A stretch of 63,015 nucleotides of DNA, counting the filler, from Dugesia japonica (lineage: Eukaryota), in NCBI GenBank assembly GCA_001938525.1. It is 6 parts of 6 records of this genome, joined end to end, with 100 filler letters (N's around TTAATTAATTAA, not from the genome) between each part and the next. Parts side by side here need not be neighbours in the genome. Positions count along the whole stretch, not along the records: positions 13,590 to 24,729 come from MQRL01346781.1; 5 more parts are not named here. The stretch is one strand, 5' to 3'. The notes below the pieces were generated by a model. It searched no databases and had not been told where the DNA came from. It was given only the letters and a program-made list of their open reading frames with translations. A program made the position numbers and the translations under genes. Positions 21,376 to 21,559 of this stretch are shown here, piece after piece (the first letter of the stretch is position 1; every line of letters begins with the position of its first letter).

Positions 21376-21559
21376 TTACAATTACAATTATTGCGAGAAT
21401 AATTGATCGTTTTTCAGAATTCATTAAAATAAAAGCTTCGAGCAAAATTTATTGTTGTTTTTGATAATAATTCTAATTTTCGAATTATTGGAATTAGAAT
21501 TAGAAGGATTATCAAAATCTATAAACAAATTTTGATCGAAGCTTTTATTTTAACGAATT
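21376..21559 (-). mobile_element. Hairpin short interspersed element, copy 1
   Basis: Fixed end TTACAATT.CAATTATTGCGAGAATAATTG and a long palindrome at 21417-21559. TSD (TT)AACTCAGAT. Confidence 0.8.

Follow-up and report, generated by a model that had tools for sequence, protein, structure and literature searches.

What are the five short copies, most of them palindromic, that share one fixed end in a stretch of Dugesia japonica DNA of 63,015 nucleotides (the window, from assembly GCA_001938525.1)? The initial annotation viewed them as an undescribed SINE-like parasite of a LINE or a Penelope. We do not favour that reading. In our judgement, the copies are very probably dead-end stubs of a Penelope-like retrotransposon (PLE), with two repeat ends placed head to head, one tail, and a hammerhead motif. 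We assign them to PLE stubs because a hammerhead, a one-sided tail, an inverted tail-less arm, and a long target-site duplication (TSD) make up the published layout of PLE insertions. We have high confidence that the family behaves as PLE stubs do; its membership among the PLEs is based on anatomy and the ribozyme motif rather than on a linked ORF. A LINE is an unlikely partner. Most likely, these are ordinary PLE stub insertions, of a kind already known, rather than a new kind of SINE.

We begin with the fixed end and its 8-bp stem-loop. If up to three mismatches to the 21-nt stem-loop are allowed across the whole window, it occurs five times (at 21385, 37348, 40253, and 53894 on the plus strand and at 42314-42334 on the minus strand), as against 0.04 occurrences expected by chance, and none of 100 shuffles reached five. 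So the five copies do share this end. The same pattern had no matches in metagenome contigs and none in viral contigs. The fifth copy, which had been placed at about 42178, has the fixed end but lies on the opposite strand and spans about 42177-42345. The parts of the copies are as follows.

21364-21375, plus strand: left TSD of copy 1, 12 nt exact; its final base is possibly the element's first
21375-21417, minus strand: one-sided tail of copy 1, 43 nt with a 16-nt deletion inside, terminating in the 8-bp stem-loop
21418-21486, minus strand: tail-bearing arm of copy 1, whose inner end extends to the GAAA and helix III part of the hammerhead
21492-21559, plus strand: inverted tail-less arm of copy 1
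21557-21568, plus strand: right TSD of copy 1, sharing ATT with the arm end
37331-37514: copy 2, with its tail at 37338-37394, arms at 37395-37444 and 37455-37504, and a 10-nt loop
37331-37338 and 37507-37514: TSD of copy 2, 8 nt exact or 10 nt with one mismatch
40228-40421: copy 3, with its tail at 40243-40302, the tail-bearing arm from 40303, the centre at about 40366-40370, and the shortened inverted arm to 40406
Ends of 40228-40421: TSD of copy 3, 12 nt exact or 15 nt with one mismatch
About 42177-42345, opposite in orientation to the other copies: copy 5, decayed, with its tail stem-loop at 42314-42334 and no recognisable TSD
53872-53883, plus strand: left TSD of copy 4, 12 nt, at the empty-site joint
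53884-53943, minus strand: tail of copy 4, whose own arm is absent
53944-54039, plus strand: inverted tail-less arm of copy 4, the longest piece of terminal repeat in the window
54037-54048, plus strand: right TSD of copy 4, sharing ATT with the arm end

Whole insertions are 155-190 nt long. Every copy has its tail on one side only, and this tail is 57-60 nt in copies 2 and 3 and 43 nt in copy 1 after the deletion. In the coordinates of copy 4, the family's arm ends at 54039, while the other arm runs on into the tail. The opposite end had been described as a long foldback, which is correct for copies 1-3 (z = -16.7 for copy 2) and, in decayed form, for copy 5. Copy 4 has no hairpin: here the inverted arm, longer than in the other copies and bearing the hammerhead, has its inner end fused straight to the tail. 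The centres differ as well, with five different ones in the five copies.

The two arms of a copy resemble each other more than they resemble the arms of other copies. Within-copy identity is 92% in copy 2, 92% in copy 3, and 84% in copy 1, versus maxima of 73%, 78%, and 78% to arms from elsewhere in the family; the arms of copy 5 are 60% identical, which is no better than between copies. This agrees with what the initial annotation reported for copies 2 and 3. It was also right that both arms of copy 2 carry the same extra run (a 5-nt A-rich insertion in each) and that copy 3 is shortened on one side, as its tail-less arm has lost ~30 nt from the outer end, away from the tail. Symmetric terminal inverted repeats and tRNA-type promoter boxes had been reported absent, and we concur: only 8-12 of 25 terminal positions match, no tRNA was found, there is no exact B box, and, with the A and B box patterns in general use, no A box occurs in copies 1-4. 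The most conserved motif of the arms (54010-54022 and its equivalents in all arms) contains a 9-mer that differs from the Pol III B box by one mismatch. This 9-mer has no A box at a suitable distance, and the likeness is probably due to chance.

Are these copies insertions? The exact direct repeats at their edges are 12 nt in copy 1, 8 nt in copy 2, 12 nt in copy 3, and 12 nt in copy 4, and copy 5 has none. With one mismatch allowed, copy 2 reaches 10 nt and copy 3 reaches 15 nt. In 20,000 random draws, a 12-mer repeat came up at boundaries of this type 3 times. The duplications had been said to vary from 9-11 to 15 bp. They are present, but their variability is weakly shown, because three of the four are 12 nt when counted exactly. 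In copies 1 and 4, the initial ATT of the duplication could be the element's own end, which would leave 9 nt; these are also the two of four duplications that start with ATT, in a window of ~26% GC. The duplications of copies 1 and 4 are true insertion scars, because paralogs with empty sites carry the 12-mer once. For copy 4, paralogs in all three of three DNA runs skip the element, joining 53871 to 54037 with 12 letters that fit either side. For copy 1, a paralog within the window (20410-20600) is colinear and has the site once, at 20482-20493. The earlier proposal of target-primed retroposition, with a Penelope as a possible driver and with arms made anew at insertion, is supported.

The surroundings are AT-rich (16-34% GC per 2 kb) and contain relics of Gypsy-type and Tc1/mariner-type elements and of Pif1. 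Just one host gene could be clearly seen, a Rho-family GTPase, with exons at 57561-58055 and 58443-58637 on the plus strand (Pfam Ras, E = 1e-42). Decayed Gypsy-type relics with RNase H and integrase lie at 19775-20600, 21208-23290, 27966-28824, and 31194-34355, and include a local duplication (19775-19925 versus 21208-21353, 88%). The family had been described as interrupting Helitron and Chapaev relics. Copy 3 does lie within the relic of a Pif1 helicase and splits it into an upstream part (Pfam PIF1, E = 0.0092) and a downstream part (Pif1_2B, E = 7.8e-5), which fits a Helitron. The host of copy 4 is a multicopy element that has empty sites in the DNA runs, but its name, Chapaev, is presumptive and comes from a motif only; Pfam is blank for the ORF of this host, and an Atlas search gave no usable match. 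Other repeats in the window include a MITE-like palindrome of 390 bp (51917-52306, 74% complementary) and, at 52379-52475, a 49-bp palindrome, after which come ACCGGT-type repeats and a CCCTA end; we take this to resemble a hAT/Ac-type terminus. There are unclassified dispersed or inverted repeats at 4325-4897 and 7455-7684, at 8459-8698 versus 10920-11143, and at 3143-3406 versus 7091-7468 and 11970-12098. Also, an 87-nt unit is repeated three times in tandem at 3435-3695 (77-79% alike); its length is a multiple of three, and it might be a coding repeat.

One part escaped the initial annotation: the arm of copy 4 contains a minimal hammerhead motif of type I. On the plus strand, this motif is laid out as follows.

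53952-53986, plus strand: the motif, from the descriptor match and the family's majority letters
To 53956, plus strand: 5' strand of helix I
53957-53963, plus strand: core, followed by an unpaired A at 53964
53965-53973, plus strand: helix II, followed by GAAA at 53974-53977
53978-53979, plus strand: palindromic positions 15.2/16.2
53980 and 53981, plus strand: U16.1 and N17
From 53982, plus strand: 3' strand of helix I

A descriptor of the minimal hammerhead (min-HHR), composed post hoc once the motif had been seen, matches once in the window, within copy 4, and has 0 matches in 300 block-shuffled windows. The whole motif is present in one of the five copies; most copies appear to end short of the core. 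Copy 4 departs from the hammerhead pattern at two positions where the family does not: with the letters found in most copies, both C3 and the pair in stem II are regained. Specifically, in DNA run X1 the majority at 53957 is C (149,694 of 168,749 depth, 89%), which gives C3, and the majority at 53972 is T (187,837 of 189,202, 99%), which closes the middle pair of helix II. The RNA runs X18 and X21 have the same majority letters at both positions. Position N17 of a hammerhead should not be G; here, X1 has C at 55%, U at 24%, A at 20%, and G at 1%, and X18 has A at 35%, C at 30%, and G at 9%. A variant within the family changes 15.2/16.2 from UA to AU and so keeps the palindrome (in a loose-end consensus from 17 contigs and also in the inner arm of copy 1). 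The features of PLE min-HHRs that are present are the core boxes, the unpaired base after A9, G10.1-C11.1, the palindromic 15.2/16.2, and an N17 that is rarely G. The invariance of 53958-53971 and the flat depth over the core could be artefacts of seeding, and we do not use them as evidence.

Rfam reports no hammerhead on 53930-54010 and only chance-level matches in the whole window. Energy folding of the motif does not return the hammerhead fold (z = 0.87), and it is not stable alone. In three RNA runs, with 12-173 reads each, RNA ends do not pile up at the predicted cut. Judging from the letters of many copies, the hammerhead-like motif is backed at the family level, and we regard the ribozyme as putative. 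A second, unrelated hammerhead-like motif is found at 43028-43075 on the plus strand, with a UUGAAGA core, an unpaired U, a perfect 6-bp helix II, GAAA, and a possible 7-bp helix I. It is single in the window, has no Rfam match, and is possibly from another PLE family.

How do these copies compare with known PLEs? In Pen2a of Adineta vaga (PMC3846280), the insert is made complete by an inverted pLTR, one side has a tail of 31 bp, the TSD measures 9 bp, and the tail runs on into the ORF's start. The legend of Fig. 2 in PMC8557442, which outlines a general scheme for EN+ PLEs, has the same inverted pLTR and tail. The D. japonica copies share with these published layouts a tail-less inverted second copy, a one-sided tail, a TSD (8-10 bp in Adineta, mostly 12 nt here), and a hammerhead in the pLTR. 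Where the Pen2a tail overlaps the ORF start, copy 3 has an open frame of 43 codons across its arm and tail, which is what one would expect if the tail were the start of an ORF, as in the account of PMC3846280. They differ from the layouts in those sources in that no ORF lies between the repeats and the whole insertion is just 155-190 nt. Also, the tail of 57-60 nt is longer than the 31 and 30-40 given in the published descriptions that we drew on (30-40 is a typical range rather than a strict criterion), and the family is far more abundant than the few copies in Adineta.

Cervera and de la Pena (2014, PMC4209133) describe metazoan PLE min-HHRs as type I, with a base left unpaired after A9, with G10.1-C11.1, and with a palindrome at 15.2/16.2. 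The motif in copy 4 agrees on each point and has a similarly short helix I, but its helix II is 3 bp, versus 7-8 bp in the S. mansoni families covered there. The same source regards dual hammerheads on opposite strands, 100-700 bp apart, as probable truncated PLEs. The refuting case named in the initial annotation, a match to a Penelope pLTR, is close to what we found, the likeness being one of anatomy and of the hammerhead.

A further comparison is to PAc, a Poseidon element of Anolis carolinensis. According to PMC11167929, both strands of the target are cleaved and extended in vitro, with a preference for ATT; the tail is the stretch bounded by two internal start sites for reverse transcription; and cleavage by the hammerhead is not required. 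Relative to this account, the D. japonica family similarly has a hammerhead near the likely ORF start, a stem-loop at a start site, and no RNA-seq ends at the cut; two start sites that bound the tail would be a further likeness, as the ATT at the start of two of the four duplications may be. PAc, as reported there, starts 111-118 nt into a known ORF at an AC-rich stem-loop, whereas here we did not find the ORF, and the stem-loop is rich in A and U.

With PAc as the model, insertion would probably proceed as follows. A GIY-YIG endonuclease of the element would cut both strands of AT-rich DNA, with nicks ~12 nt apart, and either nick would prime reverse transcription on one and the same RNA. Of the two start sites, one would be where the tail stem-loop ends and the other ~60 nt upstream, at the GAAUU end of the arm. 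The two cDNAs would extend merely 50-100 nt toward the hammerhead, end at variable points, and then be joined head to head. In copy 4, one arm was likely lost after insertion. Two cDNAs from the same RNA would produce a palindromic insert whose tail is on one side, whose centre is particular to each copy, and whose arms share the private variants of their template, with no later homogenisation. In light of PMC11167929, the arms of a copy are likely alike because one RNA was the template of both, with reverse transcription starting at sites ~60 nt apart.

We did not find an autonomous partner in the window or in weak protein searches with frames of the tail. Pfam identified no RT or GIY-YIG domain in 215 stop-free ORF pieces of the window (stop to stop, at least 48 amino acids, low-complexity removed). 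Protein searches with two candidate tail frames returned 5 and 3,019 candidates, none with E <= 10; the queries are short, so these are weak tests. Nor did we find a published description of the family in the literature that we covered, which is mostly outside subscription journals and Repbase reports.

The family is very large. In three public DNA runs from the same organism, 11,515-14,191 contigs per run align to the 361 nt around copy 4, and the summed depth at the tail is 1.2-1.9 million versus 6.6-16 over the junction of copy 4 itself. The ratio of the two, 1.2-2.5 x 10^5, is not a copy number, but the density in the window (82 per Mb) multiplied by 0.7-0.9 Gb of contig letters leads to a similar order. 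This suggests roughly 10^5 copies, which is not a true count. Among the joints listed, the commonest in all three DNA runs links 53937-53941 to 54039 on opposite strands, that is, the tail and the inverted arm; head-to-tail back-joints among them are of low depth only. The inner end of the arm of copy 4 (53949-53987) is itself repeated, at ~9-11% of tail depth, which is a lower bound because of seeding. Upstream of 53944/53945, agreement is 0.43-0.56 (37+14 contigs from X1, DNA; 56+34 reads from X18, RNA), so the sequence there is heterogeneous, and this boundary may be an RNA 5' end. Beyond the tail, loose ends agree at 0.45-0.47, and no continuation of an ORF is seen. Transcripts are few: 50 of 10.5 million reads in X17 are from the family, on both strands, and 173 of 13.6 million (X18) and 12 of 11.6 million (X21) fall on the 62-nt stretch with the hammerhead.

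These data bear on the best of the alternatives, which is that the template was a short non-autonomous RNA of ~155 nt, reaching from the hammerhead to the end of the tail and starting at a fixed 5' end of its own, and was not the front part of a full-length element. Such an RNA would resemble a retrozyme, travel as a PLE's passenger, and insert by the same two-cDNA mechanism. We think that this is unlikely. The very high abundance, the lack of shared sequence upstream of 53944/53945, and the lack of an ORF beyond the tail are all in its favour. Nevertheless, the 5' end of an autonomous element's RNA would be expected to give an equal boundary, a consensus of loose ends would hide rare full-length elements, and the open frame through arm and tail suggests a coding origin. 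The copies are like non-LTR retrozymes in being non-coding, in having a type I hammerhead, and in their kinship to PLE pLTRs. But non-LTR retrozymes form head-to-tail tandems (PMC7229834; bioRxiv 10.64898/2026.07.22.740005), while here single insertions with a tail are head to head and 0 of 5 copies are in tandem.

It is less likely still that master copies give rise to transcripts of the entire hairpin, which are then retroposed as one unit, as a SINE-like parasite would be; the arms would stay alike because their masters were perfect or because conversion acted on them later. Copying of a whole-hairpin RNA would account equally well for the shortening of copy 3 solely at the end far from the tail. 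The insertion common to the arms of copy 2, with the short spacer between them, and the low-level transcripts from both strands also fit. On the other hand, reverse transcriptase would have to traverse a 50-bp duplex of about -70 kcal/mol, each of the five copies has its own centre, and the layout is already accounted for by PLEs. Furthermore, no single hairpin master dominates the copies that bear the hammerhead, because the sequence upstream of 53944/53945 is heterogeneous and has no dominant consensus. Taken together, these two alternatives would make the family an independent Penelope-driven parasite of ~10^5 copies, a PLE-mobilised SINE that inserts as head-to-head pairs of cDNAs. We doubt this, with somewhat less conviction than we doubt either version. 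If it were true, then the centres would map RNA 5' ends and the stop points of reverse transcriptase in vivo, on a very large scale.

Another alternative leaves the assignment to PLE stubs as it is: a single cDNA could fold back near the hammerhead and prime its own second arm. For Adineta, palindromes at inverted junctions have led to a proposal of self-priming (PMC3846280), and the centre of copy 1 is near helix II. Still, the centres are not fixed, an extra rule would be needed to end the second arm just before the tail, and two start sites for reverse transcription suffice, so we consider it quite improbable. Snap-back at helix II was at one time our main reading and was demoted to a minor rival, as the alignments at the inner ends of the arms are ambiguous in copies 2 and 3. 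Finally, a derivative of a DNA transposon (a MITE, a fold-back element, or a Helentron-type element) could explain the hairpin shape and the exact 12 nt in three of four duplications, but it is largely refuted by the asymmetric ends, with no terminal inverted repeats, a one-sided tail, and a hammerhead motif, and a TSD is present where Helitron types generally make none (PMC8969392), so we give it almost no weight.

If the copies are PLE stubs, as we believe, then in repeat annotation the family belongs under Penelope-like elements and not under SINEs or MITEs. Its tail of ~60 nt extends the range of tail lengths in the published descriptions that we drew on. The family also preserves, in nature and in very large numbers, the outcomes of PLE integration. 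In an assembly, its tens of thousands of copies could probe the model of two start sites and priming from both strands, which so far comes mainly from one in vitro system, and the same copies could reveal whether the ends of the cDNAs are concentrated where the hammerhead cuts.
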